Origin: Rhizophagus irregularis
Taxonomy: Eukaryota
Direction: 5' to 3'
DNA length: 64,000 nucleotides
NCBI RefSeq assembly: GCF_026210795.1
Contig: NC_089431.1
Location: 3,534,001 to 3,598,000 of the forward strand
The notes beneath the pieces are model-generated. The model made no database searches and was not told where the DNA came from. It was given only the letters and a program-made list of their open reading frames with translations. The stretch's first letter is position 1. Each line of letters opens with the position of its first letter. A program made the position numbers and the translations under genes. This document shows positions 27,771 through 47,308 of the stretch, piece after piece.

Positions 27771-28186
27771 CTTCTAGATATTAGCCATTCTCTTTTCTTT
27801 TTTTAATAGGAATAGATTAATGGTTTTTTGAGAATAGGTAAATAAGATTTTGAGTAAGAAAACATGGATGTTAGAGAAATGAAAATTTATAATAAGAGGA
27901 ACGAAAAAAAATTTAATGTAAAATCTGATATTGAATAATATAAAAATTGTGTAATAAATAAAATCAACTTAAAAATTGAGATTATTGTCAGGTGATATGT
28001 GTGATGCAAATCATTGATAATCTTTACAAAGACACGACATTTTTTTATTACAGTTTTTTTTTATGGAAAACACGTTTTATCGCGTTAACAGATTGAAAAC
28101 ACATGTTTTATCTCGTTACAGTCTGAAGACACATGCTTTATATCGTTACAGCTTGAAAACACATGTTTGTAGCTATATGTTTTGTC

Positions 28187-30055
28187 ATGGAATATACGTT
28201 TATCAGCAGAGATACATTTAATGGAATTATTGAACGTTACATTGGCAACCTCCCTACGTCAAAGCAAGAAAAAGCTTTGATAAATCTTAATTTTTTAAAT
28301 AAAATTAAAGAAGTATTGTTAGACCCTAAAAATAATACTATTTCTAATAAAAATACACGTAGTTGGATTAAGAAAAAGTTTAAGCTTGAGGAAATAACAC
28401 CTGGTGACTATAGGGTAATTGTTGCAGCAAACAACAACCCAGTGTTGGCTGTAGAAAATATGTACGAAGTTTTATATCGAACTCATGCAGAAATTACACA
28501 GCATGGTGGGCAAAGACAGACATGGAAGTCTATTATAGAAAGGTGGGGTTGGATTAAACAAGATATTGTAGAACAATTTGTTAATAATTGTACAATATGT
28601 GCAGTACGAAAACCATCATTTCACCCTTTAGCAGCAAAGCCTATCATTGCAAGGAATTTTCTATCTCGTGTGCAAGTAAATATTTAATTTATTTTATATT
28701 CTTTTTTTTATTATTATTATATTTAATTTATTTTTTATTTTTTTTTAGATGGATCTTATTGATTTATCATTTGACGCAGATGGCGAATATAAATATATTT
28801 GCCATGTAAGAGATCACTTTACAAGATTCTCTTGGGCCAGAGCTCTTACTTCAAAAAGAGCTATTGAAGTAGCAGCATATCTTTTTGAACTTTTCCATTT
28901 TTTAGGCTCTCCTCCAACTATTTTACAGTCTGACAATGGGAAAGAGTTTTGTGCGGGAGTAATAAAGGAATTAATTGAAATGTGGCCTACAGTAATGATT
29001 ATAAATGGTCGTCCATGACATCCGCAGTCTCAGGGCCTAGTTGAACGTGCTAATGGAATTTTACAACAAAAGCTTGGTAAGTGGCGAGAGAATACTGGCC
29101 GAACTGATTGGTCTTTTGGTCTTAAATTTGTTATTTCAGCTATGAACAATTCATGGTGTCGGTCCCATAAAAAAACACCATATGAACTCGTATATGGTGA
29201 TAAACCACGTGGAAATTGTACTTTAATTGATGAATTATTTGCAAAAAATATCTATAATGAAGAGGATATACCTGATACTATACAAATATATGATAGTATT
29301 GAAGATTTGGATAGTGATATAATAGATGATTTGCAAGGTAAGGTTTTTAATACTAAAAAAATTATTAATTTCAATAATATTTATTAAATTTAATAAAATG
29401 TTTTTTTTAATCTAATTGCCAAATTTTATTATTTATCATACTAATACAATTAGAATCAAATATTCCAGTTCAACAATTAGATATTGAAAGAGCAGTGGTC
29501 CAAGATCAAGATAATGAAAATAATAGACATATAGTACTTATTGATCCAGTCCTTTTAGATATTACAAATAATACACAGCACGAAGTATTAAGAAATATGG
29601 CTCGTCAAGACCTTCAAGATTATACAAATAAGATGGCCAATCAAATGAGCAAGGGAAGAAAAAGAATTAAAGAATATCAGATTGGTGATCTGGTAAGGGT
29701 TGCTGTTCCTAAAATTGATAGATTTAGTGTTGATCGACCCACTTTGCCATGTAAAATTATGGAAAAAACTGAAAATAATAAATATAGTTTGGGATCAAAA
29801 TTTGGAATAATTGGAGTGTATTATTCTGCTAGTGAATTAGAACCACTTGGAACAGAAACTTTTCCTGAATTAGAAGTCATTCCCTTAAACAAAATATCAA
29901 TTAGAGAGGCTGCACGTCTTCAGAGTGCGGGTTTAGTATCAGGGGGTATATGTAATTGTAAAGGTGAATGCAATAGTAATAAATGTCGCTGTAAGAAGGC
30001 AGGTGGAGACTGTAGCAGTAGATGCCATAGTGGACGTTCATGTCAAAATAAATGA
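28187..30055 (+). pseudogene. Ginger-like / KRBA2-SCAND3-like integrase-transposase with a premature stop
   Basis: HAEITQHGG...CTIC (HHCC), QMDLID, QSDNGKEF, GRP*HPQSQGLVERAN (TGA at 29016-29018), C-terminal CNCKGECNSNKCRCKK...CSSRCH; two introns. Confidence 0.88.
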
Positions 30056-31717
30056 TGCGGCATTTGTTATATGTAAAAATATATTAATTAGTCAAAAAAA
30101 TGCATTATTACTGATGTCTTATATGAAAAAATAATAAAGAATTTGAATTTAAGTAATTTCATGTATGCTTAAATCATTGATTTTATTTGTTAATAGATTA
30201 TACACAATTTTATATTATTCAATATCAGATTTTACATTAAATTTTTTTTCGTTCCTCTTATTATAAATTTTCATTTCTCTAACATCCATGTTTTCTTACT
30301 CAAAATCTTATTTACCTATTCTCAAAAAACCATTAATCTATTCCTATTAAAAAAAGAAAAGAGAATGGCTAATATCTAGAAGAAAACACCAACATTATAG
30401 ATACCATAACACCACCTATTTACCGGGAGAGAGTCCAAATCGAAATGCTAAAAAAAAAGACAAAAGAACGGTCAGTACCGTTCTACTTTACAAATACGCC
30501 GATTATTTAAACATATGAGAAAGAAAATAACACCACAGATACCATAGCACCAAATATTTACCGGGAGAAAGTCCAGACCGAAATGCTAAAAAAAAAAGAA
30601 AAAAGAACGGTCAGTACCGTTCTAGGAGAAAGAAACTAACACCATAGACACCATAGCACCAAATATTTACCGGGAGAGAGACCAGACCGAAATGCTAAAA
30701 AAAAAAGAAAAAAGAACGGTCAGTACCATTCTAGGAGAAGGAAACTAACACCATAGACACCATAGCACCAAGTATTTACCGGGAGAAAGTCCAGGCTGAA
30801 CTGCTAAAAAAAAAAAGAAAAAAGAACGGTCAGTACCGTTCTAGGAGAAAGAAACTAACACTATAGTAAACATTATAGCATACCTATTTACCGGGAGAGA
30901 GCCCAGGCCGAAATGCTAAAAAAAAAGAAAAAAAAACGGTTAGTACCGTTCAAAAAAGAAAAAATAAAATAAAAATTGAATTCTACCTTAAAACATTTTA
31001 ACCGTTCCTATTAAAAAAAGAAAAAGAAATGGGTTAAATACGGCTCCTAAAAAGAAAAAAACAAAAAAAACCTACTTAAAATGTTTAACAAAAAAAAGAA
31101 AAGGTAGGAATGGTTAGTACCGTTCCGAAAAAGAAAAAAACAAAAAAAAAAATAAAATAAAAGCTTCCGAACTTACCTCAAAGAGCCAATTAGCCGTAAA
31201 GAACCGTTCTTATTAAAAACTTTATAATAATTAAAGTAATTTTTAGTGTAGTTACTAATGAGTTAAACTAACACTATTTCAGATTAATAAAATAGTAAAA
31301 AATAGTAGAAAACGATCAATATTTTTTTTAAAAAAAAATTTTTTATTTGCCTCAGATTAAAACTGAGGCACCTCAGATTATCAATGATCCACATCACGCA
31401 CCTCACATGACGATTTCAATCTGAGGTGCGTGAGTTGCGATCTGAGGCAAGAATCGATCTGAGGCACAACATATATAATGGAATATTCCTTAATTTAGAA
31501 ATTTACCATGATTTTAAAATTTTTTCCGTACAAAAAAAATTTTTTTCCATGATTTTTTACTAAAAAAAAAAATTCCCCTAATTCCATGATTTTTAATTTT
31601 TTTTACCTCCTTAAAAAAAAAAAATAAAAAAATAAAATGGATTTTATTTCAAGTCTCTCACCTTTCTCGCGTCTCTCACCTTCTTCGTATCTCACACCTC
31701 GCTTCTAATTCTAAAAA

Positions 31718-32682: not shown

Positions 32683-32728
<46 letters not shown>
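31718..32728 (+). pseudogene. CACTA accessory gene, 5' part (poly-N, SFG repeats, T/A-rich, poly-Q), interrupted by the Polinton-like element
   Basis: ATG 31718, (AAT)n, GT-AG introns; exon 3 ends ...SYWPLQQQQ at the insertion point. Confidence 0.65.
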
Positions 32729-33187
32729 GTCGTCGGGCTGGATGTGGGCCTCGCTACCGCTCCACCCACCTCGGCCTCGCGGCCTCGCAGTACCTATATC
32801 CCCCCTACGGGGCACAGGAATCCCCATATATCCGCCACAATCTGGGACAACATATGGAACAAATATATATACCAAATAACTAGAAAACAATAGAAAAGGA
32901 AGGAATAACGGATATAATGAGAGGGTTGTCCCGGATGTGGCAGATGTGGCAGATGTTTCAGAAAAAATATGAGAGGACATCCCCCCAGAAAAAGTTTTAT
33001 TTTTACCCCCCCAGATCCGCCACATCCGGAACATCTGGAACAAGTCAGGATTCCGTCTAATAATCTATTGGAAGCAGTGAGACAGCAAACCAGGTAAATT
33101 AGTAGGTAAGCCCCTAGAAGGTCTATAGAGCCAGTAAGACCAACCCCGTTCTGCCCCCGTCAGAAAAAATAAGTAATTGAACAATGG
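32729..33187. repeat. Left TIR of the Polinton-like element
   Basis: GTCGTCGGGCTGGATG...GAACAATGG; reverse complement of 46808-47266 with ~3 mismatches seen. Confidence 0.93.
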
Positions 33188-33230
33188 ATATTGAGAATAG
33201 AGCATATCCAGATAAGTTTAGAAGACAGTA

Positions 33231-33551
33231 CTAATCTGTTTTCCTCTTTTTTGCCTCCTTAAGGCATTTATCAATACACTGTTTACACACGTCATCAGAA
33301 TCTAAGATTTTCTGTCCAAGTTTTTTGCATTGCCGATTGTAAGCCGTCTGCTGTCTTTTAGCAGCGGTTTCTTTCTTTTTCTCCTTAGTCTTCTTCTTGA
33401 TCACCCAGTCTATTCCAGTAAAAGTATTCTTATGCATACCACAAATTGTGCAGTCACCATGCAGCCGGTAACGCCCATTTGTAGTCATATCTTGTATTTC
33501 ACTAGCCGTCTCAGTTTCCTTCTTGCACTTTAGGCAGTAAAAACGTGTCAT
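33231..33551 (-). CDS. Small zinc-ribbon protein (DUF5679-like) with basic tail
   Basis: FYCLKCKKETET...TTNGRYRLHGDCTICGMHKNTF; K-rich C-terminus with CxxCxxxC. Confidence 0.7.
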   Translation of the reverse strand: MTRFYCLKCKKETETASEIQDMTTNGRYRLHGDCTICGMHKNTFTGIDWVIKKKTKEKKKETAAKRQQTAYNRQCKKLGQKILDSDDVCKQCIDKCLKEAKKRKTD

Positions 33552-33595: not shown

Positions 33596-34687
33596 ATGTC
33601 ACACTTAGAGAATTACTATAAGTACTACAATCTCTCCGGAGTACCAGCACGAATTCTAAAAGGTGAAGAGCACTACAACCTATACAAAAAGCCCCTAAAG
33701 GAAAAGTCAACAGAACGCCCAAAGGTAATTGTATGGAAACCAAATGCAATACATCAGGCAGATCTTGCAGAGATGCCAGTTGACCCCAAAGGATTCCACT
33801 ATTTTCTCGTAGTGGTGGAAGTTGCAGGAAAGAGAGTTGATGCAGAACCCCTAAAGGATAAGACTGCAAATAGAGTTCTAAACGGGTTTGTCAAAATCTA
33901 CAGAAGAAATCGTATTAAGCCACCAACACACAGACTGGAGACAGACTCCGGATCAGAATTCACTAACGACCAGGTACGTGATTTTTTCCTGAACAGCCTA
34001 GGGGTAATGATGAGGTTCGGAGAGCCAGGAAGGCATAAACAGCAATCTTATGCTGAAAGAGCTATCCAAGCCATCCAAGAACCCCTTCTTAAACGAATGG
34101 TAGCACAGGAGTTGAAAACCGGGGTGACATCCGTGGAATGGTCAGAAGATTTCCATAATATAGTGAGTAAAGTAAATGAACTCTGGCAGAGAAATCCCCC
34201 AGACATTCCGACAGGATCACCCAAAGTGTCAAAAAAGACGGATCTCCTCTCTGAAGGAGCACGTGTCAGAGTCAAGTTAGATGAACCTATCTCAGTACTC
34301 GGTAATAAACTTCACGGAAAATTCCGTACAGGAGACATAAGATGGAACCCAAACATTCGTGTAATCAAAAAAATGATACTCTCACCCGAACAGCCTCCTA
34401 CATATCTCCTTAATGGACCACATGGTCGATTAGGTGTATCCAGATGTGCATATACCCGAAAGGAATTGCAAGTAGTTCCTATTAATGAAAAGCCTCCACC
34501 TGACTCTGTGATAAGAGGACAACCTGAAAGATTTGTTCCTGAGCAGATACTTCGGCATCGCATTAGAAAAGGTCAAGACCAGTATTTGGTTAAGTGGGAG
34601 CGCTATCCAGACACTGAGGCTACTTGGGAACCTGCTGACCGTTTGAAGGAGGATGTCCCTGACTTAATTCGCAAATTTTGGGAATAA
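33596..34687 (+). CDS. Polinton-type retroviral-like integrase with C-terminal chromodomain
   Basis: DDE: HQADL, ETDSGSEF, AERAIQAI; chromodomain FVPEQILRHR...YLVKWERYPDTEATWEP. Confidence 0.92.
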   Translation: MSHLENYYKYYNLSGVPARILKGEEHYNLYKKPLKEKSTERPKVIVWKPNAIHQADLAEMPVDPKGFHYFLVVVEVAGKRVDAEPLKDKTANRVLNGFVKIYRRNRIKPPTHRLETDSGSEFTNDQVRDFFLNSLGVMMRFGEPGRHKQQSYAERAIQAIQEPLLKRMVAQELKTGVTSVEWSEDFHNIVSKVNELWQRNPPDIPTGSPKVSKKTDLLSEGARVRVKLDEPISVLGNKLHGKFRTGDIRWNPNIRVIKKMILSPEQPPTYLLNGPHGRLGVSRCAYTRKELQVVPINEKPPPDSVIRGQPERFVPEQILRHRIRKGQDQYLVKWERYPDTEATWEPADRLKEDVPDLIRKFWE

Positions 34688-34711: not shown

Positions 34712-35458
34712 TTATTTTTTATCCCCTCGATTAGCATCAGGAACTATCGGGATAAAAACATTCTTCCCATCACAGGTAAAGGCTATATGTTCACGTGATT
34801 CATGGACATCATAATTGTAACGTTTCAGACACGTTCGGCTTAACCCAATTTCCCTATGCTTGTAACCACTTAAGACTGCAAGGTCCTCAGTGATAGCATA
34901 ATCAGGGGTAAGTTTGATTGTCACTCCCTTTACCATGCCGAATGTCCTACCTGTTCCTGAAGCACCAGATATGTTATATGTAATACTCTTGTCAATATCC
35001 AACCCTAATTCCTCAGCAGCTTCTCTCTGAATAAAAGACGCATTAGCACAAGTGTCTGCTAAACACTGAATTGCTATTCCATTAACCTCCCCATCCAGTG
35101 CTAAAAGATCTTTAGTATTCTCTAAACGAGCTATGTCAATATCCATAGGATCATCTACCCTGATATCCTCTTCTTGTTCCTCCTCAACTAGGTCCTCCGG
35201 AATCTCTGTGACTTTTCTAGCAGACAATAACTCCTCCTGAAGAATCTCACGGAGTAATTTCCTAAAGTCTGCAGACCTTAACAGGCTTAATAAATCATTC
35301 TTAGTAACAGCTTTTGCAGGTGTAAACTTACTACCAGTAACTTTCACAGGAATCTTAACAGGGGTTGCTTTGCCTTTCAATGGCACACTAGAAGAGTTAA
35401 CTGCTGTCTTATTTGGGGACGACTTAAGAAGTTTTGAGATACTCGAACCTACTTTTTT
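34712..35458 (-). CDS. Retropepsin-like aspartic protease, probably expressed by -1 frameshift from Gag
   Basis: GEVNGIAIQCLADTCANASFIQREAAEELGL, ISGASG flap-like segment. The frame is open from the A-run at the Gag stop; no ATG near the 5' end. Confidence 0.78.
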   Translation of the reverse strand, partial: KKVGSSISKLLKSSPNKTAVNSSSVPLKGKATPVKIPVKVTGSKFTPAKAVTKNDLLSLLRSADFRKLLREILQEELLSARKVTEIPEDLVEEEQEEDIRVDDPMDIDIARLENTKDLLALDGEVNGIAIQCLADTCANASFIQREAAEELGLDIDKSITYNISGASGTGRTFGMVKGVTIKLTPDYAITEDLAVLSGYKHREIGLSRTCLKRYNYDVHESREHIAFTCDGKNVFIPIVPDANRGDKK

Positions 35459-36879
35459 TTTGACCCAACACGAACCATATAGACATCACCATCTTTTTCT
35501 CTCAATTCTACCTTTTCACCAAAACTCGCAGTATCAATGTCCATAGCATCATCATTAAGATCGAGGTTTCTCATTGCTTGGGCCAAATCCAGATCATCAC
35601 GTCTATCTTTAGCCTTCTGAAGTTGTTTTGTAAGTATTTTAGACGTCCCACGTTTATATCCCATAATAAGATCAATAGCATTTTGATGATCATCCAAAGT
35701 CCACTCAGGAGCATCAGGGTCATCACCAACATCATGATCTACATAACCATCATCCCAATCAGGATCCTGAGGATCCTGAACAACACGTCTCTGTGGTTTT
35801 GGTCGAACAGGTTTAATCTGCTGTCTATAGACTGGTGGATTACGAACTGGCCGAGCCTGTAATTGTTTAAATTGCACCTGAAAATTCTTGGTAAGTTCCT
35901 CAGCTTGAGCCTTAAGTAACTCTTGTAATTGTTCTTGAGTAACCCCAGATGACTTTGATGTCAGTACTACAGGTTCCTGTTTTCCTAACGGAGGTTGAGT
36001 TACATCACTGTAATCTGCTTGAAGTCGTCGATTTCTATCTTGTAACCCCAAGCGCATTTCAGCCCTTCTCCGTTCTAAATTTCTCAGATGTTTAACCAAG
36101 TCATCAGGATTAAGATTACTAAACCTTTCTGCTTCAAAAATATTATCAGCCGAAAGACCTCTAAAGAACTGGTCGATAATAAGATCATCAGTTAGTTTTA
36201 GTAATTTTCCAGCTCTCTTTACAGTTCTATAAAATGCATCGACTGGCTCATTTTCCTGATAAAGACTGTTAAAACGGATACGTTTCTTTTCATCTAAAAT
36301 AGTTGGAAATTGTGTTCTAAGCCAATAAAGCGCCTGGTTAGGTTTAATACCTGGAAAAACTATAGAACGATTATTATTAGCAGCAACACCAGCATCTGCA
36401 GTAGCTGGAGCAGCTCTATCTGTCGGACGAGCACCAGCTCTTCCCCAAGCTTTATCTCCACCTATTAAATCATGGGTAGGAATAAATGCTGCTCTAATAG
36501 TTACTAATGCATTAGCTGCATCTGTAGCATGAACATGTGCTTCAGACCCATTTACATAGGTACCTGCATTTGGTCCTCCTGCACCTTCTGGTATTACTAA
36601 TGCTACAAAAGCAGCTAAATTAGCTCCACCTCTTGAAGTAATACCAGAAAGTTCCCAATTTTTTCCTGTAATTTCTCGATCAAACCATTCAGCCGCTTCA
36701 CCAGCCATGCAGCTTCTAAGTATACCCATAGCTCTTTTCCAAGACTCTGGTGGTCCTCCAGCAGCATATGGGTTAAGATTAATAGTATCAAGATAACCCA
36801 TGTAAAGCCTAACAAATGTATCAACATCATCAGTAGCTTTACCCTCAAAAATCGGCAATCCTATCGCAGTGGTAGCCAT
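35449..36879 (-). CDS. Retrotransposon-type Gag capsid protein
   Basis: LPIFEGKATDDVDTF...MAGEAAEWF...GKNWE and FNSLYQENEPVDAFY...QFFRGL align by eye with the Ty3 Gag in this window (IEPFSGKEDEDPIEW...LRGAASDWY...GNHWE; LTLRQGSNETVNDY...MFLFGL). Confidence 0.82.
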   Translation of the reverse strand: MATTAIGLPIFEGKATDDVDTFVRLYMGYLDTINLNPYAAGGPPESWKRAMGILRSCMAGEAAEWFDREITGKNWELSGITSRGGANLAAFVALVIPEGAGGPNAGTYVNGSEAHVHATDAANALVTIRAAFIPTHDLIGGDKAWGRAGARPTDRAAPATADAGVAANNNRSIVFPGIKPNQALYWLRTQFPTILDEKKRIRFNSLYQENEPVDAFYRTVKRAGKLLKLTDDLIIDQFFRGLSADNIFEAERFSNLNPDDLVKHLRNLERRRAEMRLGLQDRNRRLQADYSDVTQPPLGKQEPVVLTSKSSGVTQEQLQELLKAQAEELTKNFQVQFKQLQARPVRNPPVYRQQIKPVRPKPQRRVVQDPQDPDWDDGYVDHDVGDDPDAPEWTLDDHQNAIDLIMGYKRGTSKILTKQLQKAKDRRDDLDLAQAMRNLDLNDDAMDIDTASFGEKVELREKDGDVYMVRVGSKKK

Positions 36880-37658
36880 ATCGTCTCTAGTGGATTGTTT
36901 AAAAGAGGTGGAGGAGGGTTCAATTGTCTAATTCGAAACCATTGTACCTGAATTCTAAGAGCAGCTATCTGTTGGAAAAGTCTATTTCTAAGTCTCCCTA
37001 ATGTCTGAATCCCAAAACGCACCCTATTATTAGCATGTGCTAGCTGTGCATTAACCTGTCCAAGTTGCGCATTAACCAATACAAGTTGTCCTCCAGTCTG
37101 AGTAGCCCTCAGCCGCCAATGATTTAAAAGGATATTACCACGATTCACAGCATTTTGAGCCTCATTACGATCCCTTACTGCTTGAGTATAATCTGCTTGT
37201 AATACATTACGTTCATGTCGTGCCTGATTACGTTCACCTATAGCCCGTCGACGAAGCTCTACCATAGTATCATAATCTCTTTGCAGGTTATGGTTTTCTT
37301 CTATGAAATTATCATTGGCAGCACGTATAATAACTAATTGACGTTCTAAATTAGTAAACGTTTCATCAAATGCATTTATCTTACCTTGTGCAAAAACTAA
37401 CAAATCTTTTGTAATACCAAGTTCTTCATGTTTTGCTTTACAGCGATACATTAATATATTAATAATATGTTTGATTTGATTATTTGCCTCCTGTATCTCT
37501 GAATCAACAGTTAAACGACCCCTGGTAGTCAATAAATTTGCATGAGCCTTAAGTATTCTAACTAATTCATCATCGTCTTTTTCATTGACCAAGTGTGCAG
37601 GAGGCGGTCCAGTAGGTTCTGAAGGAGTATAAACTGGAATTGGTGTTGATGTCGACAT
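36861..37658 (-). CDS. Coiled-coil protein overlapping the Gag start
   Basis: 265-aa ATG ORF with heptad-like ERNQARHERNVLQADY; 19-bp overlap with gag. Confidence 0.75.
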   Translation of the reverse strand: MSTSTPIPVYTPSEPTGPPPAHLVNEKDDDELVRILKAHANLLTTRGRLTVDSEIQEANNQIKHIINILMYRCKAKHEELGITKDLLVFAQGKINAFDETFTNLERQLVIIRAANDNFIEENHNLQRDYDTMVELRRRAIGERNQARHERNVLQADYTQAVRDRNEAQNAVNRGNILLNHWRLRATQTGGQLVLVNAQLGQVNAQLAHANNRVRFGIQTLGRLRNRLFQQIAALRIQVQWFRIRQLNPPPPLLNNPLETIWLPLR

Positions 37659-37689
37659 AGTATTTAAACTAAGTTAGAATAAAATTCAA

Positions 37690-38913
37690 ATGGATCTTTA
37701 TGTATACAATTTGGACGAGTACACGACTGACTCAAGACAAGGCAATGAGTTTGCTCCATCATGGCCCTTTCGATTAGCCGTAGCAGGTAGCTCAGACTCA
37801 GGTAAGACAACTATGATCATTAATTTGTTAATGGGTAACAAGAAAGCAAAGGAGGATGGTAATCGGTATGTACTATGTGATGCGGTACTTTTAGTTGGCA
37901 GATATCTTGACGAGCCGAAGTGGGCAGTTGTACATGATTTTTTCGAAGAGGAGAAGATCCCATTCACTGCAGTAACCCATAGTGAGATTCCAGAGATTGA
38001 CTCCTTCAACCCTACTCAAGCTACTGTGGTAATCTTTGAGGATCTGATGGATGCACCTAAAAAAATCCAGGATCTCATCACTGGTTACTTTACACATGGA
38101 CGACACAAAAATATTTCATGTATTTATGTAGCCCAAAGATTCTTTGCCATTCCTAAGGCTATTCAAGAAAATGTTAACTACATCTCACTGCATGGAGGTC
38201 ATGGAAGCCTTACAGATACCAAGAGAATCATCCGCCTATATACAGAAGAATCAGAGTCATTAGCACCAGTAATTGATGATCTTACTCTGCAACGTGAATT
38301 TGTAGTGTTTGATCTTAGACGGTCCAAAAGTGATCCACTGTCCATTCGAGTAAGATGGGATACTAGTCTCAGTTCGATTACAGAGCAATCTCAGTTCAAT
38401 CCTAGTTTGATCTCAGTTCAATCTCAGTTTGATCCAAGTTTGAACCCAGTTCGATCTCAGTCTGAACCCAGTTCAATCACAGTTCGATCCAAGTTTAGTC
38501 CCTATGGTCAGAAAGCTGTATTTGAAGCAAAAAAAGGTGGACACTTGATTGAATTTGCTCGGGTATTTCCATCCCCTAAAGAACGTCAACATTTACTTGT
38601 ACCTGGTGTCTTAGCCAAGAATGCAGATACCTGGATTAAATATGTCTTTCGGGAAGCTTATGGACTCTCTGGTAAGACCTTAGGAGCTGACTTTCAGGAT
38701 TTCTTAGCAAAAGTACAGGGTAGGACTGCAAAGACTGAAACTCTGAAAACTGAGAATGTGAAGGAGTTATTCTCCCGATATGAAGCCCTGAAGTCTAGTC
38801 GCCCTCTGGATAATAAACAAATAATAGAAGGTATTGAAGTCCTTCTACAGATCTTTTCTAAGAGCCACATGGACCGTCGAGCATTACAAGTAGGGATTAA
38901 TAGTATCTTGTGA
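37690..38913 (+). CDS. A32-like (FtsK/HerA superfamily) DNA packaging ATPase
   Basis: Walker A GSSDSGKT, Walker B VVIFEDL, GRHKNISCIYVAQ...IPKAIQEN as in poxvirus A32/Polinton ATPases; C-terminal extension. Confidence 0.88.
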   Translation: MDLYVYNLDEYTTDSRQGNEFAPSWPFRLAVAGSSDSGKTTMIINLLMGNKKAKEDGNRYVLCDAVLLVGRYLDEPKWAVVHDFFEEEKIPFTAVTHSEIPEIDSFNPTQATVVIFEDLMDAPKKIQDLITGYFTHGRHKNISCIYVAQRFFAIPKAIQENVNYISLHGGHGSLTDTKRIIRLYTEESESLAPVIDDLTLQREFVVFDLRRSKSDPLSIRVRWDTSLSSITEQSQFNPSLISVQSQFDPSLNPVRSQSEPSSITVRSKFSPYGQKAVFEAKKGGHLIEFARVFPSPKERQHLLVPGVLAKNADTWIKYVFREAYGLSGKTLGADFQDFLAKVQGRTAKTETLKTENVKELFSRYEALKSSRPLDNKQIIEGIEVLLQIFSKSHMDRRALQVGINSIL

Positions 38914-40084: not shown

Positions 40085-40146
40085 GTCTTTTTTTCTGTAC
40101 GTGTCTACATACCTAATAGTTTTCTTCAATTTATAATAACCAAGTG

Positions 40147-40300
40147 ACATGGTCATCAGTCCTTATCAAAAAATACAAGAATACCTGATGATAAGGTTAC
40201 ATGGTCATCAGTCCTTATCAAAAATGCAAGGATACCTGATGATAAGGTTACATGGTCATCAATCCTTGTCGAAAAAATGCAAGGATACCTGATAAATAAG
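40147..40300. repeat. Three ~52-bp tandem units, each an imperfect hairpin
   Basis: ACATGGTCATCAGTCCTT...AAGGATACCTGATGA at 40147, 40199 and 40250. Confidence 0.85.
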
Positions 40301-40632
40301 TTACTGGGTTATTGGCCTAGAATGCATTCATGGAAAAACTATGGATTATATTACAGAAAATGTGAACGGAGTTCATGTCACGTGATACCCTGAACAAATG
40401 TGTAGAGTGTCACGTGATTTCATGCGGTACGTAGATCATTTCCTTTTTGGGCGATACCCGTTCCACAAAAAATCGATTTGGTAAGAATGCGTTTGGAACC
40501 CTGTGTAACATAAATTTCTTTTTTCGGTAATTCGGGATTACGCGGTAATGCCGGCCGGATCTAAAAAATATGACTCTGCAGGGTAATTCCTACGAAAGTC
40601 AAGTACAAAATGCTTACTCCTGTTGAGTCCAA

Positions 40633-41019
40633 TCATTCCAATCTCCAAGGATCGCCTCCCCATCTATGTTCACTTAATGCATGCTCTATGGTTTCCCTTT
40701 CCTGGGGGTTCACAACCATCCCATTCCTAAGCATTTTCTCCATAATATAAAGCTGATCCTCGGTGAGGCGGTCTATCCATCTTTTATAGAAGTCATTTAC
40801 ATCTTCAAATGATATCCAGTCAATATTCCCTTTTTCAAACGGCTTTCCAAGAGCTTGGACATGACCAATTGTAATAGCGTAATTTTTCCATCTCTTATAT
40901 GCTTCTTGACGAACCTCCTGCCACCACACACTATCTACTTTACTCGCTGCAATAAGGTCAGTATCTGGGATCTTTGCAACAATGCGTTCGACTATTTCTA
41001 CTGGTAATCGGTCCAACAT
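40633..41019 (-). CDS. F-box-like protein
   Basis: N-terminal LDRLPVEIVERIVAKIPDTDLIAASKVDSVW fits the F-box pattern. Confidence 0.7.
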   Translation of the reverse strand: MLDRLPVEIVERIVAKIPDTDLIAASKVDSVWWQEVRQEAYKRWKNYAITIGHVQALGKPFEKGNIDWISFEDVNDFYKRWIDRLTEDQLYIMEKMLRNGMVVNPQERETIEHALSEHRWGGDPWRLE

Positions 41020-41696: not shown

Positions 41697-43576
41697 TCAT
41701 GTCCAGATAACCTTGTTTGCATTTTTCACATGGCAGTATCCTGCGGTTTCAAACTTGAGAGCTTTCAATGCTTTGGATGCATTTTCTGGACAAGTGATAA
41801 GTGTAGGACTACTCGGCTGTTCCTCTAGAATAAATCCATCTGTATGGATGCGTCGTACTTTATCCTTATATGGTTCTAATAACTCTGAAGTCGTCTTCCG
41901 TCCATGTGCTAATAAGAATGGAGCGATCCTAGGATACTCACCCTTGAAGGGACTACCTGGGTTTGTGAACTGGAATCGCCACTGGTCAGATCCTACTGGT
42001 ACGATGGAGTCAAGTGTGTGGCCTTCTGGAAACTTGAATGGATCTGTTTGATCTGTGGTGAGTGTCTTGTAATTGCGTTTCCTCTGGCAGAGTGCTCCCC
42101 ATAGTGTATTGAGAACTCTCTTTGCAACACGACCGGCCACGCCACCCTGGTTCTTTATATTGAAGAGAAAGTGGACATACTCACCAAATATTACAGTCCC
42201 AGGAATTCTTGCTTCTCTGTCATATATCAAGGCATTTGGCTTTCCATCCTGGATTAACTGTATATCGAGTCCAAGTTTCTTTGCTCGTTGTAAGTCAATG
42301 AATGTATAGACTCCCCTCTTATTCTGTCGGAAGAGAATGTCATTACCACTTACCTTGCCCTTGGGCGCTCCTGGGAGCTAGCACGAAATAATCCATACAA
42401 GGCATAACCTCTATGGTCTACAAAGTCTTTGAGTATTTGAAACTTACCTTGTCGGATTGGAAAGTTTGCATTTGATTGCTGAATACTTGGATACAAACTT
42501 GTCACGTCGTATTGCCTTCCATAGCCCTTCCATTCGTTGTCTGCCCAGATAAGACCTCCCATCATTGCATCACTTATCCACTCTGCTTCGACTGGGTCAA
42601 GAGGATCATTGGCTGGAACCCCTACACTAAACCGTTCAAAAAGCCAGAGTGCAGTTCTCTTGTACGACCAGTTGTGGTAAGATAAGTCGATTCCTAGACC
42701 GAACTTCTTTGTAGCCTGTAGGAAGGAATCCCGCTCTTCATGGATCCTCTGGTATGTTTCCTCAAGTGTTTCATATATTCCAGTTTTACAATTCTTCTCG
42801 ATAGGGATGAAGGAGTAACTATCAGAGTTCTTACCTTTCTGAAACTGTCCAACTGTAAGAGACTTAACTGTCTTACCATTGTATATTGTTACTACATTAT
42901 TAACCCCATCTTCACGATAAACAAAGGGAGACTTTTGTTTTCTATCTAATTTGCTAGGGTGGAGTCTTCCGGGATTCAGTGCAAGAGAGTAGTGGCCTTC
43001 AGACAGGATAAGTGTTGCACGTCTGTCAGATTTGCTCTTAGAAATTCGAGTGGAATCCCCTACAATATTAAGTGCAAGGCTTCCTGCAAGTTGTTCAACC
43101 TTATCCATATATGAGACTGGAACTGAAGCATCACGATTGAGACCTAATGCCTTTTTGATATACTCGGGCTTTTCGATTGACTTTGGCATTTTAGAGAATG
43201 TGCCGTAGATATATTTCAGGCATTTATACAGGCAATCATTTAGCTTCCCATTGCACCCCCCTGCAACCGGTGGGGCATCTCTCACATAAATTATGAATCA
43301 TTCAAAATAATCAGGGTCTGCATCATCCGGTAGTTGTGCTTCGTCGTAGTGGTCCAAGAGTGAGAAGAGGCTGGCTGGTTGGTTTCCTGATGTCCATCCA
43401 CCGGGTTTCCAGTTTTCATAGGGGAGCAGAATCTGAAATTTATGTGTCGGATACCGGGATTGGAGTCGCTGTCCAAGTCTTGCTATTGCTCCTCTGGAAA
43501 ATCTTGCGCCTGAATACTGTAATTCTTTGATATCCGGTCTTGTAGGTAAAGCACGGACAATCTCTGAATAAACCAT
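41697..43576 (-). pseudogene. Family B DNA polymerase (protein-primed/Polinton type), disrupted
   Basis: Motif A YDVTSLYP preceded by GG, motif B AKRVLNTLWG, motif C IHTDG. In-frame TGA at 43298-43300 and a frameshift at ~42350-42380. Confidence 0.85.
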
Positions 43577-43767: not shown

Positions 43768-46194
43768 TTACTCGGGGATCTCTCGTGCTTTACCCTTATT
43801 CATCTTCATAGTTTCATAACCGGAGGTGGTAGGGATAATCTCGGCATCATGATCCTCCTTATATGCTCTTATTAGATCTGTGAGTTCTTTACGGCTAGGT
43901 GTTTTAGGTAAGTACCCATTATATTCTATCCAGTCCTTGAAGCGGTCTACTACCTCCCTAAGGTAGTACTGGTACTCGTCCTCAATACGTGTTGTGGGAC
44001 ATTCCTCTACTTCAAACGCGAGTATTTCCCAGTCATAGTCGTCTGACACGTCTTGATACTTAGCCCATAAATCCTTACCTGTATTGTAGAGATCATTGAA
44101 GACCTGGTTCTTTGAATTCTTGACCCATGGCTTACGATCCCATCGGTGCCTTTCATGCCAAGCCCAGTATGCTCGAGTACCTTCCTTTGGTTTAGGGTCC
44201 CAGTCAACTTCTAGTTCTGTGTCGGGTTCTGGGATAGGTTGCTCTTCAGGAGCTGGTTCTGGGTCAGGCTTAGTGACAGATGCAGAAAATTCTGCGGGAG
44301 ACTCGGGTTGTTGTTCAGAAGCTGGGTTTACAGTTGTAAAATCTGAGTCAGATAGCAAGTCATCTAAAACGTCGTAGTCATCATCAGCTTTAAATGCAGG
44401 TTCCTCAGCAGGCGGCTCATTTTCTTGATCAGGTTCCTCATCAGATAGATAACAGTCCGAGAAGCTATCTATAGGTTCATCAGTATCTGATTCTATAGGA
44501 GCTGGAGATTCCTCAGGAATAGGATCCTCATTGATGACAGGTGCGGGTTTTACCTTCAAGCAATCGGGCTTAAGTGGTACTGGTGGTGGAGTCTTTTTGG
44601 TCTCTTCAGTAGGCTTCTTCTTGACAGGAGCGGGTTTTTCCTCAGCAGGTTTCTCTTGTACGTCTTGTGGATTATTAGCAGGAATGCTATATATATTTGC
44701 CAAGAACTTTTCTAAGGCTTTGGGATCAGATGCGGGCTTCTCGGGAGTTTCTACATCTATTCCTTCTATATTGATTTCATCTGTTTCATGGATCCATTTT
44801 TTGGTGAGAAACTTTTTGTAAAGGTCCTCCCTAGATATGCTGTAAACTCGTGGTGTTGTCTTACCTACACGTATTTTTCTGCTATTTATACCCAACTCAT
44901 TTGATAGGATTCTAGAAGCGTTTATCTTTGATAGGGGTGTAATGCAATGAGTTTCACAGTATGAAGTATATACCCTATAAAATTCTTGAACAGGTAGGTC
45001 GGTTATATGATTTTTTACTATGAGGTAAATGTCCTTTATGAATTGAAATAGGGGTGGGAGAGTTGATATGATGTGATCCTGCTTAGATGTCGTCATAGGT
45101 GGTGGATTCCCATTGAAGTCTGGGTAAGCGTCTGCAATGGCTCTCAAGTAAGCATAGAATGCCTCACTGGCACCTGGGTATTTCATAGCGTCACTGAGTT
45201 TCTTAAAGTAGTTGAGGTCTCCCTTGCGGGATGGTGACACATCCAAGAACACTGTGCGCCTATCGTCATTCTCCACTCTGAGAGCATTTTCATTAGTGAG
45301 TACAATGGTGGATATAAAGTTTTTGTAATGTGTTGGCGTCTTGTATTTTTCATGGATTTCCATTATGTCACCTGTTACCTTATCCTTCAATGATCGATAC
45401 AGATTATTCCACTGGCTTTTTTCTGTAGGCATTTCCTCGAGGAGGAGAAGAACCTTACCTTGTAATTGCCCATTGAAACTTCCAAGAATCGTTTGAGGAT
45501 CACTGGTCTTATAAACAAGTTGAGTACCTAAAACACTACGTTGAATGAAATCTGTTATAATACTCTTACCCCAACCCTGTCCAGATTTCAGGTAGAGAAT
45601 CGAATACATTTTCCTTCCGGCTGCCACACCGGCCAACCACTTTATGATATACTCAGTAAGATTCCAATCGCCTGAACACCAGATATCCTGAATGTGGGAG
45701 AAGATAAATTTAACCGCGAGGTGGGTTGTAGATTCAAAAGTGGATATCGGACGCAGGATATGGAGGAATCCTGGAAAGATATTGAGATAAAGTTGGCCAC
45801 CTAGTTCAAAGATACGGGATTTTTGAGGGTCACAGGTAGCTACACATACAGTACTATATTCGATCATAAACCATTTGTTGATATTAAATTCAACCTTTTG
45901 TGAAGGACCCTGTTCAGATTGTGTGTAAAAGACTTTGGTAATTGGACGGATAAGTTTATTAATATTTTTATCAGGGATGTGCTCGAGGTTTTTGATTTCT
46001 GATCGCCACATGAAGACTCCATGTGGGTTGGAGCAGGGGATAAAGTAACTGCAAAGATAACCTTTAGCTTGATTGAGATCCCTCATATTCTTTGCAGCGT
46101 TAATGAGCCGTTTAAGCTCATCAATACTAAAAGCCTTCTTCTGTTCACCGAACTTGGGGATAACTTGAGCTTGAGTGCTAGTTTGGGCAGTCAT
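43768..46194 (-). CDS. SF3/D5-like (DUF5906-type) helicase with long acidic/proline-rich C-terminal region
   Basis: YLNIFPGF, YIIKWLA, Walker A SGQGWGKS, FNGQLQGKVLLLLEEM (Walker B), VLTNENAL...DDRR. The frame continues ~36 codons past the TAA. Confidence 0.85.
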   Translation of the reverse strand: MTAQTSTQAQVIPKFGEQKKAFSIDELKRLINAAKNMRDLNQAKGYLCSYFIPCSNPHGVFMWRSEIKNLEHIPDKNINKLIRPITKVFYTQSEQGPSQKVEFNINKWFMIEYSTVCVATCDPQKSRIFELGGQLYLNIFPGFLHILRPISTFESTTHLAVKFIFSHIQDIWCSGDWNLTEYIIKWLAGVAAGRKMYSILYLKSGQGWGKSIITDFIQRSVLGTQLVYKTSDPQTILGSFNGQLQGKVLLLLEEMPTEKSQWNNLYRSLKDKVTGDIMEIHEKYKTPTHYKNFISTIVLTNENALRVENDDRRTVFLDVSPSRKGDLNYFKKLSDAMKYPGASEAFYAYLRAIADAYPDFNGNPPPMTTSKQDHIISTLPPLFQFIKDIYLIVKNHITDLPVQEFYRVYTSYCETHCITPLSKINASRILSNELGINSRKIRVGKTTPRVYSISREDLYKKFLTKKWIHETDEINIEGIDVETPEKPASDPKALEKFLANIYSIPANNPQDVQEKPAEEKPAPVKKKPTEETKKTPPPVPLKPDCLKVKPAPVINEDPIPEESPAPIESDTDEPIDSFSDCYLSDEEPDQENEPPAEEPAFKADDDYDVLDDLLSDSDFTTVNPASEQQPESPAEFSASVTKPDPEPAPEEQPIPEPDTELEVDWDPKPKEGTRAYWAWHERHRWDRKPWVKNSKNQVFNDLYNTGKDLWAKYQDVSDDYDWEILAFEVEECPTTRIEDEYQYYLREVVDRFKDWIEYNGYLPKTPSRKELTDLIRAYKEDHDAEIIPTTSGYETMKMNKGKAREIPE

Positions 46195-46414: not shown

Positions 46415-46774
46415 TCAAACTACATATATCTGAAATCCAAACCGCTCAAGAGCTCCTTTTACTATAGTTAGCTTTTTTCTAGTGTCCGTTAACTCTTTAC
46501 AAGCCTTTTGATACGCCTTCCATTCAAGTTCACGGAGGGTACCCTCCTCCTCCAATGATTGGCCAAGAGCATCGTTTGCTTTTTCCTTCTTTTCTACTGC
46601 CCTGTCGTATGCCTCCTCGGCTTTTTTATGCCGCTTCCAGAGTACTCGTTCAGCTTCGGCTTTCCAGATTGGGCTGACTTCTAAAAGATGTGGCCCGAAA
46701 TTGCTACTTGGAATGTGTTCCAGGATATGGCCTACAAGTTCAGGAATTACTAATACTGCGTGCGGGGTATACAT
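46415..46774 (-). CDS. F-box-like protein with coiled-coil tail
   Basis: IPELVGHILEHIP...LLEVSPIWKAEAERVLW. Confidence 0.6.
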   Translation of the reverse strand: MYTPHAVLVIPELVGHILEHIPSSNFGPHLLEVSPIWKAEAERVLWKRHKKAEEAYDRAVEKKEKANDALGQSLEEEGTLRELEWKAYQKACKELTDTRKKLTIVKGALERFGFQIYVV

Positions 46775-46807
46775 GTTATCTGTCCTTATAGGTTACTTAT
46801 GGTATAC

Positions 46808-47266
46808 CCATTGTTCAATTACTTATTTTTTCTGACGGGGGCAGAACGGGGTTGGTCTTACTGGCTCTATAGACCTTCTAGGGGCTTACCTACTAATTTA
46901 CCTGGTTTGCTGTCTCACTGCTTCCAATAGATTATTAGACGGAATCCTGACTTGTTCCAGATGTTCCGGATGTGGCGGATCTGGGGTGGTAAAAATAAAA
47001 CTTTTTCTGGGGGGATGTCCTCTCATATTTTTTCTGAAACATCTGCCACATCTGCCACATCCGGGACAACCCTCTCATTATATCCGTTATTCCTTCCTTT
47101 TCTATTGTTTTCTAGTTATTTGGTATATATATTTGTTCCATATGTTGTCCCAGATTGTGGCGGATATATGGGGATTCCTGTGCCCCATAGGGGGGATATA
47201 GGTACTGCGAGGCCGCGAGGCCGAGGTGGGTGGAGCGGTAGCGAGGCCCACATCCAGCCTGACGAC
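46808..47266. repeat. Right TIR of the Polinton-like element
   Basis: CCATTGTTC...CAGCCTGACGAC; reverse complement of 32729-33187. Confidence 0.93.

Positions 47267-47308
<42 letters not shown>

Follow-up and report, generated by a model that had tools for sequence, protein, structure and literature searches.

A predicted retro-type Gag and protease module in a Polinton-like DNA element of Rhizophagus irregularis, with a conserved A9 site for putative Gag-Pro recoding

The subject of this report is a stretch of 64,000 nucleotides of Rhizophagus irregularis DNA (RefSeq assembly GCF_026210795.1, contig NC_089431.1, positions 3,534,001 to 3,598,000 of the forward strand), called the window throughout, and a cassette of three overlapping open reading frames (ORFs) on its minus strand which encode a coiled-coil protein (ORF-A), a predicted retro-type capsid protein (Gag) and a protease (Pro). 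The cassette is held in an island of 14,538 bp with about 40% GC, compared with about 27% for the host, and by its anatomy this island is a Polinton-like DNA element. The features of the cassette, numbered by window position, were as follows.

34712..35461, minus strand: protease ORF, 257 aa, in the -1 frame relative to Gag; a linker, about 100 aa long and containing a conserved helix, DPMDID, then a retropepsin domain with the active-site motif LADTCAN
35449..35461, minus strand: putative Gag/Pro recoding site A9-G-TAG, with in-phase A_AAA_AAA (35455-35461) and A_AAA_AAG (35452-35458)
35449..36879, minus strand: Gag, 476 aa from its own ATG; predicted two-domain retro-type capsid at about residues 5-282, then a coiled, low-complexity tail
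36861..36882, minus strand: start/stop overlap, with a purine at -3, ATGGCT, and the ORF-A TAG starting 16 nt on from the A of the ATG
36897..36903, minus strand: U_UUA_AAC heptamer, in phase, lineage-restricted and probably incidental
36861..37658, minus strand: ORF-A, a 265-aa coiled coil in what may be a matrix-like position upstream of the capsid

A first-pass annotation had joined these ORFs by two programmed -1 ribosomal frameshifts, and the letters on which it relied were confirmed. TTTAAAC is in phase in ORF-A (CTT TTA AAC), and the -1 frame runs from there through FKQSTRDD-MATTAIG into Gag without a stop. Gag ends TCA AAA AAA AAG TAG with AAAAAAG in phase, and its -1 frame leads through KVGSSISKLL into the protease ORF, which has no nearby ATG (its first Met is residue 114 of 257). 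No convincing stimulatory structure had been seen by eye, and structure scans of the window agreed, with z +0.6 at both sites and no H-type pseudoknot above shuffled sequences. The placement of the cassette in a DNA element, with terminal repeats, integrase, polymerase, ATPase and helicase as described below, also held. When relatives were compared, the frameshift proposed between Gag and Pro stood while the one proposed between ORF-A and Gag did not.

Conservation was assessed with 16 metagenome loci, protein homologues and the contigs of public runs, the last being assembled contigs for which RNA status was mostly guessed and the strand was unknown. The Gag/Pro junction was covered by eight loci and the window (n = 9, L005 from direct reading). 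In all nine sequences the run was of exactly nine A's and ended 1-2 nt short of the Gag stop; A_AAA_AAA was in phase at -10 from that stop, and Pro lay in the -1 frame. They represent four independent contexts (window/L013; L002/L003/L004/L012; L008; L005/L010) between which the Gag capsid was 38-61% identical. The run in the window, at 35453-35461 directly before G-TAG, is the sole A or T run of at least nine within any coding region of the element, and the 63,966 nt of Gag-strand sequence contained just 15 A9 runs, of which nine were those at the junctions. In L002, L003, L004 and L012 the -1 frame is closed by a stop codon at 13 nt before the Gag stop and can therefore be entered solely at the A9 run.

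There was no conserved ATG from which Pro might start by itself. The first Met past the Gag stop was found at codon 10, 17, 93 or 103, and the called starts of Pro homologues were scattered over 37 distances in 59 proteins (five of 64 were without the anchor motif). A stand-alone protease from an internal Met was considered improbable as the main route, as no full-length locus has a stop in the upstream linker, whose helix, recurring in all four contexts, is conserved. Between the window and L013 the linker differed at 19 synonymous and nine non-synonymous codons over 77 Met-free codons, a substitution pattern which shows, for this pair, that the -1-frame linker is under selection upstream of any ATG. 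Among 36 Gag C-termini, hand-picked for reaching the profile end, 25 ended in KKK or KKR and 32 had KK no more than seven residues from the end. Contigs of other public runs crossed both junctions gap-free, which speaks against an error of assembly; the one confirmed RNA run gave short, low-depth contigs, none of them listed across a junction. Taken together these comparisons strongly support the -1 junction between Gag and protease, which has the look of programmed recoding, and with the A9 run, the -1 frame and the lack of an ATG it is likely that the protease would be made only as a minor Gag-Pro fusion.

The ORF-A/Gag junction was covered by the window and 13 loci (n = 14). A purine at -3, ATGGCT and a TAG 16 nt on were present in 14/14, and the Gag ATG, which in the window lies at 36879 with the ORF-A stop 16 nt further on, falls at the N-terminus of the capsid fold. 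ORF-A homologues ended W-x4-stop in 20 of 22 cases (metagenome-type sources, with 10 NCBI rows separate), and 41 of 43 Gag homologues began Met-Ala, although these had been picked for starting at profile position 1 and the count is partly circular. The U_UUA_AAC heptamer was present in two of the 14 sequences, the window and L001 (92-93% identical), which form a single terminal clade. As the heptamer is so restricted and the ATG is invariant in its strong context, Gag is likely initiated at its own ATG and not reached through an upstream frameshift. The series of ORF-A, ORF-A-Gag and ORF-A-Gag-Pro in decreasing amounts, as expected in the first-pass annotation, thus appears unlikely, and the likely products would be ORF-A, Gag and Gag-Pro.

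We judge the chances to be about even that initiation at this ATG would occur from a nested transcript or by internal entry, a route favoured because the internal Met is conserved with no stop nearby in a more distant clade where coiled coil and Gag share one frame (the fused clade, as opposed to the split clade with a separate ORF-A). Leaky scanning was rejected, with 12-37 upstream ATG triplets to be passed. No UGGGA and no conserved fold was found upstream of the Gag ATG in nine sequences, fungal-type elements not being modelled, and folding at the ORF-A/Gag site gave z +0.6 in the window with no conserved structure and no H-type pseudoknots above shuffles. Some longer ORF-As (L002 2583-3908, L006 752-1561, L015 3353-4633) have an internal Met (EEEMADT, EIIMADT, NIMSINH) which aligns with the start of the short ORF-As, and nested in-frame starts may be general in the module.

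Termination-reinitiation, in which ribosomes ending ORF-A would move back by 16 nt onto the Gag AUG and couple the amounts of the two proteins, is a tentative alternative for this start. The out-of-frame 16-nt spacing of start and stop, fixed in 14/14, speaks for it, being within the range of about 20 nt, and in this the overlap is similar to the reinitiation sites of caliciviruses, CHV1, HvV190S and SART1, where the AUG is at most 20 nt from the stop (excerpts of PMC10275272). It differs from them in having no motif or structure resembling TURBS (the termination upstream ribosomal binding site), a strong Kozak context, which TURBS reinitiation is reported in the same excerpts not to need, and a possible second promoter. 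Against coupling, besides that Kozak context, stand this absence of UGGGA and conserved structure in 9/9 folded upstream regions, the fused clade, which keeps the Met without any stop to reinitiate from, and the possibility that the stop position reflects selection on both peptides.

The proteins of the cassette were compared by structure prediction and profile searches. Gag residues 1-311, folded with 61 homologues, gave pLDDT 82. In a wide VIA-align comparison the top 33 of the best 50 rows were retroviral, Arc/PNMA/PEG10 or copia capsids (best row Z 9.4, root-mean-square deviation 7.9, 170 residues aligned), and many rows spanned residues 5-280. The best PDB match in Foldseek was the PEG10 capsid C-terminal domain (E 2.1e-3), Retrotrans_gag matched 18 of 61 Gag homologues, and Atlas concurred (0.93). 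Each of these scores is moderate and the methods concur, and we predict Gag to be a two-domain retro-type capsid which would probably form particles. Its N-terminal capsid domain carries in the predicted fold an insertion of about 100 aa (approximately 36350-36670, minus strand) with several beta-strands and a conserved W-x3-G-G/A-R-P motif. A CCHC knuckle was found in none of 17 split-clade Gags checked, while six of 17 fused-clade proteins have one.

The protease ORF folds as a Ddi1/retropepsin domain (E 2e-8), and its catalytic Asp was invariant in 39/39 sequences. ORF-A relatives were 157-441 aa long with a conserved C-terminus, and a comparison with the PDB returned generic coiled coils only. 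The motif MD[IT][DS], which we take to be a protease cleavage motif, occurs near the Gag C-terminus (35520-35540) and again just before the protease domain (35140-35155), both on the minus strand and both conserved; the pair are probably candidate sites at which the protease would process Gag and Gag-Pro.

The surrounding element has terminal inverted repeats (TIRs) of 463 bp each, with arms 99% identical and GTCGTC termini, and both ends are flanked by a 5-bp target-site duplication (TSD), ACAGC. Polintons are known to have a TSD of 5-6 bp and a short terminal tandem repeat. Pfam searches of the window ORFs matched rve with a chromodomain, A32 ATPase, protein-primed polymerase B (pPolB), D5-like helicase, DUF5679 and aspartic protease. 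The features outside the cassette were as follows.

32724..32728, plus strand: left TSD ACAGC, inside a CAG/CAA microsatellite, with the identical 5 bp at 47267-47271
32729..33191, no strand: left TIR, 463 bp, GTCGTC terminus, 99% identical to the right arm
33231..33551, minus strand: small DUF5679 ORF (Pfam E 4e-17), adjoining the integrase in L002 too
33596..34687, plus strand: rve integrase with C-terminal chromodomain (rve E 3e-9, Chromo E 4e-17), converging on the protease ORF
37690..38913, plus strand: A32/FtsK-type packaging ATPase (Pfam E 1e-8; L002, 2e-11), divergent from ORF-A
41697..43576, minus strand: pPolB in pieces, with DNA_pol_B_2 on one of them; a single 626-aa ORF in L003
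43768..46194, minus strand: D5-like primase-helicase (DUF5906/Pox_D5, Pfam) with an acidic tail
46804..47266, no strand: right TIR, 99% identical to the left
47267..47271, plus strand: right TSD ACAGC, matching the left copy

The DNA_pol_B_2 match was above cut-off on the intact L003 polymerase ORF. The layout is shared with relatives: the Pro ORF ends at 34712 and meets the antisense integrase, with identical layout in L002, L004 and L012, and the ATPase is divergent from ORF-A also in L002, L004, L006, L008, L014 and L015. Nine reading frames of at least 200 aa are present in the element and all but one 219-aa ORF, which had no Atlas match, were assigned. Pfam gave no match to a jelly-roll capsid in the element, and no unassigned frame is long enough for a major capsid protein; neither was an Ulp1/adenain cysteine protease matched among 14 ORFs, the protease present being the retropepsin. 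These negatives cover Pfam profiles and frame lengths, small ORFs not having been folded, so a divergent penton is possible. Pfam also gave no match to a reverse transcriptase, and the repeats of the element are inverted and are not long terminal repeats (LTRs). The closest protein homologues were from R. irregularis (98-99% identical), and no relatives of the element were found in the collections of viral contigs and genome contigs that were scanned. In two runs the summed contig depth was in the thousands, depth being no copy number, and the element fits a multi-copy family.

A number of further observations were made in the window. The ORF-A and ATPase starts are divergent and 31 nt apart (37659-37689), with a spacer that is short and AT-rich in relatives too; inspection by eye of the sequences upstream of 12 window genes and 10 ORF-A starts showed no common promoter motif. 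There are 11-bp tandem repeats within the ATPase gene (38345-38509) and four 51-bp repeats in a non-coding part of the element (40117-40323). Small minus-strand ORFs with F-box-like N-termini, at 40633-41019 (weak Pfam match) and 46415-46774, have counterparts in L002, L003 and L015. GT..AG joints on the plus strand at 35629-35700, 42814-42927 and 43960-44088 are antisense to Gag, pPolB and D5, and come from two possibly-RNA runs, with one contig each. In L014, an ORF near the ATPase (371-904) with the sequence NKPVIVGVSILDLAK... had no Pfam or phage match; by eye its motif looks like that of a family B polymerase of a type unlike that of the window, and the module may be combined with polymerases of more than one type. 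Outside the Polinton, an intron-split integrase gene at 28157-30055 (plus strand) with Integrase_H2C2 and a Cys-rich C-terminus, followed by 109-bp repeats at 30376-30975, probably belongs to another DNA transposon.

The reading which we consider probable as a whole is that the element carries a Polinton-like structural module in which coiled coil, predicted retro-type Gag and retropepsin replace the jelly-roll and cysteine-protease genes, with Gag-Pro made via a slip on A9 and Gag from its own ATG. We have to acknowledge that a number of results weigh against it. The nine junction sequences fall into only four independent contexts, and the Pro linker of L002 and L004 (five synonymous, 12 non-synonymous codons) carries no purifying signal. 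One contig in each of two runs, at 4-5% of depth, lacks two A's, so that Gag and Pro share a frame; in P0169 Gag-Pro is a single ORF, and P0107 continues into the +1 frame. At the Gag/Pro site, 3' folds in six sequences gave z -1.2 to +1.4 and an H-type pseudoknot scan exceeded shuffles in one of six (L004, 2 of 100), these scans covering local folds and simple H-type pseudoknots and not long-range or protein stimulators, while high-level -1 frameshifting nearly always requires a stimulator (a passage of PMC7618472). For the capsid, Foldseek found no match at E 0.001 (viral best 8.1e-3) and the Pfam match of the window Gag itself was weak (E 0.03). The protease motif was D-[TS]-C, not D-[TS]-G, in 56 of 64 homologues (eight unmatched), and protease activity is not assured because of this substitution. 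In the window copy pPolB is in three pieces, broken by a stop near 43298 and by a change of frame near 42360; with its polymerase broken, this copy is probably non-autonomous despite TIRs 99% identical. For the relation of ORF-A to the fused-clade coil, only P0178 and P0180, both of them gene models, scored above reversed controls, and profile-profile comparison gave a probability of 1.6%. As a separate observation, with no RNA structure conserved at either junction, a hairpin was present about 45 nt downstream in L002 and L004 alone (z -3.9 and -1.6).

As no RNA structure is conserved at the Gag/Pro site, a ribosomal -1 slip and polymerase slippage both remain as routes to Gag-Pro. We lean towards the ribosome: a -1 tandem slip on A_AAA_AAA/A_AAA_AAG, aided by the adjacent stop codon, would fit the fixed phase of the site and a retroelement ancestry. 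A_AAA_AAG is described as an E. coli-type shift site in a passage of PMC5009743. With no stimulatory structure conserved the efficiency would be low, which may suffice for a protease. Free sliding of the ribosome is less likely because A9 yielded little product in an E. coli system, according to part of PMC4363877.

In transcriptional slippage the RNA polymerase would insert an additional A in the A9 run, and Gag-Pro would then come from normal translation of that mRNA. We regard this as rather unlikely, even though the run is exactly nine in 9/9, including L008 where it is offset by one base relative to the codons, a heptamer would need seven A's only, there is no RNA stimulator, and nine A's or T's are productive in bacteria (a passage of PMC5009743). 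The same source cites a bacterial efficiency, however, and A_AAA_AAA is in phase at -10 every time, again including L008. Several distant Gags have just two Lys before the tail (VKKS, RKKS), and for this reason their A runs are probably shorter. No contig with an extra A at 35453 was among those listed for the RNA-like runs, although contigs drop rare variants.

Introns bridging the junctions, as in public gene models which join ORF-A, Gag and Pro, are an improbable explanation. Most NCBI homologues are indeed spliced fusions, and the invariant TAG-G at the ORF-A stop looks like a 3' splice site. The joints of the models vary by subfamily, however (FGEK^SSPN, FRI^FKMTP), introns would not keep the A9 run or the terminal KKK, two possibly-RNA runs have contigs unspliced across the Gag/Pro junction, and among the joints listed none coincides with either junction. 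Splicing fits least of the three routes to Gag-Pro, and the public gene models joining these ORFs by introns are probably wrong.

The two-frameshift model of the first-pass annotation, or a subfamily-only trace of ORF-A-Gag production through a recent U_UUA_AAC, is improbable given the comparative evidence. In its favour the heptamer is in phase with an open -1 frame, L001 shares it although a one-codon indel lies close by, U_UUA_AAC ranks with the heptamers most prone to shifting (part of PMC5009743), and 20 of 66 gene-model proteins reading the Gag frame upstream of the ATG keep FK[QH]. The other 46 of 66 cannot encode the heptamer, which is absent from 12/14 sequences including L009 and L013, where the peptide context is as in the window but the codons are CTC AAC. 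The Gag frame is closed in 9/14, five loci having the closure at -9 and four at -21. In-phase canonical heptamers were found at 15 of 3,819 codon positions of element ORFs, which gives a chance of 7.6% for one in the ORF-A/Gag overlap of about 20 codons, and there is no downstream structure. The broader idea that an ORF-A-Gag fusion is meaningful fared better, coiled coil-Gag fusions in one frame being found in the related clade, but the heptamer route to it is unsupported. The remaining explanation, which had been named as one that could overturn the frameshifts, is that the offsets stem from decay indels, or from homopolymer errors of assembly, in what was once a single polyprotein gene. It can practically be dismissed. 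The window copy does have pPolB lesions and fused forms exist, but the same offsets are seen in sequences with as little as about 40% identity in Gag, and most of the contig depth in independent runs has them too, whereas L003 lacks the pPolB breaks.

Members of the fused clade include four JGI/ENA gene calls assumed to be intron-free, and most members have Met-[AV] at the capsid start. The coil of P0178 matched ORF-A at E 3e-8 against 4e-3 for the best reversed control, with P0180 weaker, and the C-terminal part of P0266 had no match to the window integrase. Fused and split forms separate on the tree, on which support for the split clade is weak (81/78) and the root is unknown. When L013 (1-2235) was compared with the window (35380-36930) a mosaic was seen, the capsid being 40% identical while the ORF-A end, Gag tail and Pro linker were near-identical, which suggests capsid-domain exchange between subfamilies.

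Capsids of the retro type are known in reverse-transcribing elements and in domesticated host genes, whereas Polintons belong to the jelly-roll lineage. The element is like Polintons/Mavericks (Polintoviricetes) in its long TIRs, TSD, pPolB, rve integrase and A32 ATPase, and unlike them in having coiled coil, Gag and retropepsin beside the ATPase with no recognisable jelly-roll capsid or Ulp1/adenain. PEG10 is laid out as coiled coil, capsid, knuckle, frameshift and protease. The module shares with PEG10 and retroelement Gag-Pro a two-domain capsid, a -1 protease after X_XXY_YYZ at the end of Gag and an upstream coiled coil; it differs in having no reverse transcriptase, RNase H, LTR, CCHC knuckle or conserved pseudoknot, and in its separate, overlapping coil ORF, the D-[TS]-C motif and the capsid insertion. 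Metaviridae LTR retrotransposons likewise share the two-domain Gag capsid and downstream retropepsin, but their reverse transcriptase-RNase H and LTRs are absent here.

Passages of PMC11952901 and PMC8647823 describe an expansion of Mavericks in Glomerales and their recent activity in R. irregularis, and in these passages Gag or protease is not mentioned. In nine Polintons without a capsid the protease and ATPase had been lost as well (a passage of PMC4028283). The closest precedent is Starrett et al. 2021, where the legend of Fig. 5 has the labels 'Matrix/Capsid/NC/Pro' (PMC8502044); the element combines an adintovirus-like PolB with a Gag-like and retropepsin module, Rhizophagus PolB sequences are named, and it is probably of the same family as the window element. 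The portions of that text consulted contain no module analysis, do not give the host of the panel and do not deal with frames, frameshifting or start codons. Buck et al. 2024 predicted -1 slips for adintovirus penton and 'Hexon-Adenain' fusions (excerpts of PMC11071296), which also amount to capsid-protease fusion in a Polinton-type element; those are jelly-roll capsids and cysteine proteases of animal elements predicted by software, while here the module is retro-type and the site conserved. A term search did not find Gag in the searchable portions of PMC4028283, PMC11161782 and 10.1101/2023.08.22.554363, and the consulted part of PMC6431247 has Gag only for LTR elements. The literature searched, which did not include Kapitonov and Jurka 2006, Pritham 2007 or Repbase, contained no description of this Gag/Pro recoding.

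The conserved Gag/Pro offset suggests that a retroelement control of stoichiometry came with the module and is still selected, which in turn argues that the module is used. A9-G-stop would be a minimal, structure-free recoding signal. It is possible, though we advance it tentatively, that these Glomeromycota elements represent a chimeric double-stranded DNA virus with a protein-primed polymerase and Polinton-like integration, in which linear DNA would be held in a Gag shell, possibly packaged by the A32 ATPase, and the Gag, its RNA-binding zinc knuckle lost, would be matured by a retropepsin dosed by the A9-stop slip. If this is true, a retro-type capsid would serve a DNA element with no reverse-transcription step, and a Polinton family that keeps its packaging ATPase together with a Gag-protease module would amount to a capsid swap between two virus realms, in an element family recently expanded in crop-associated symbiotic fungi.

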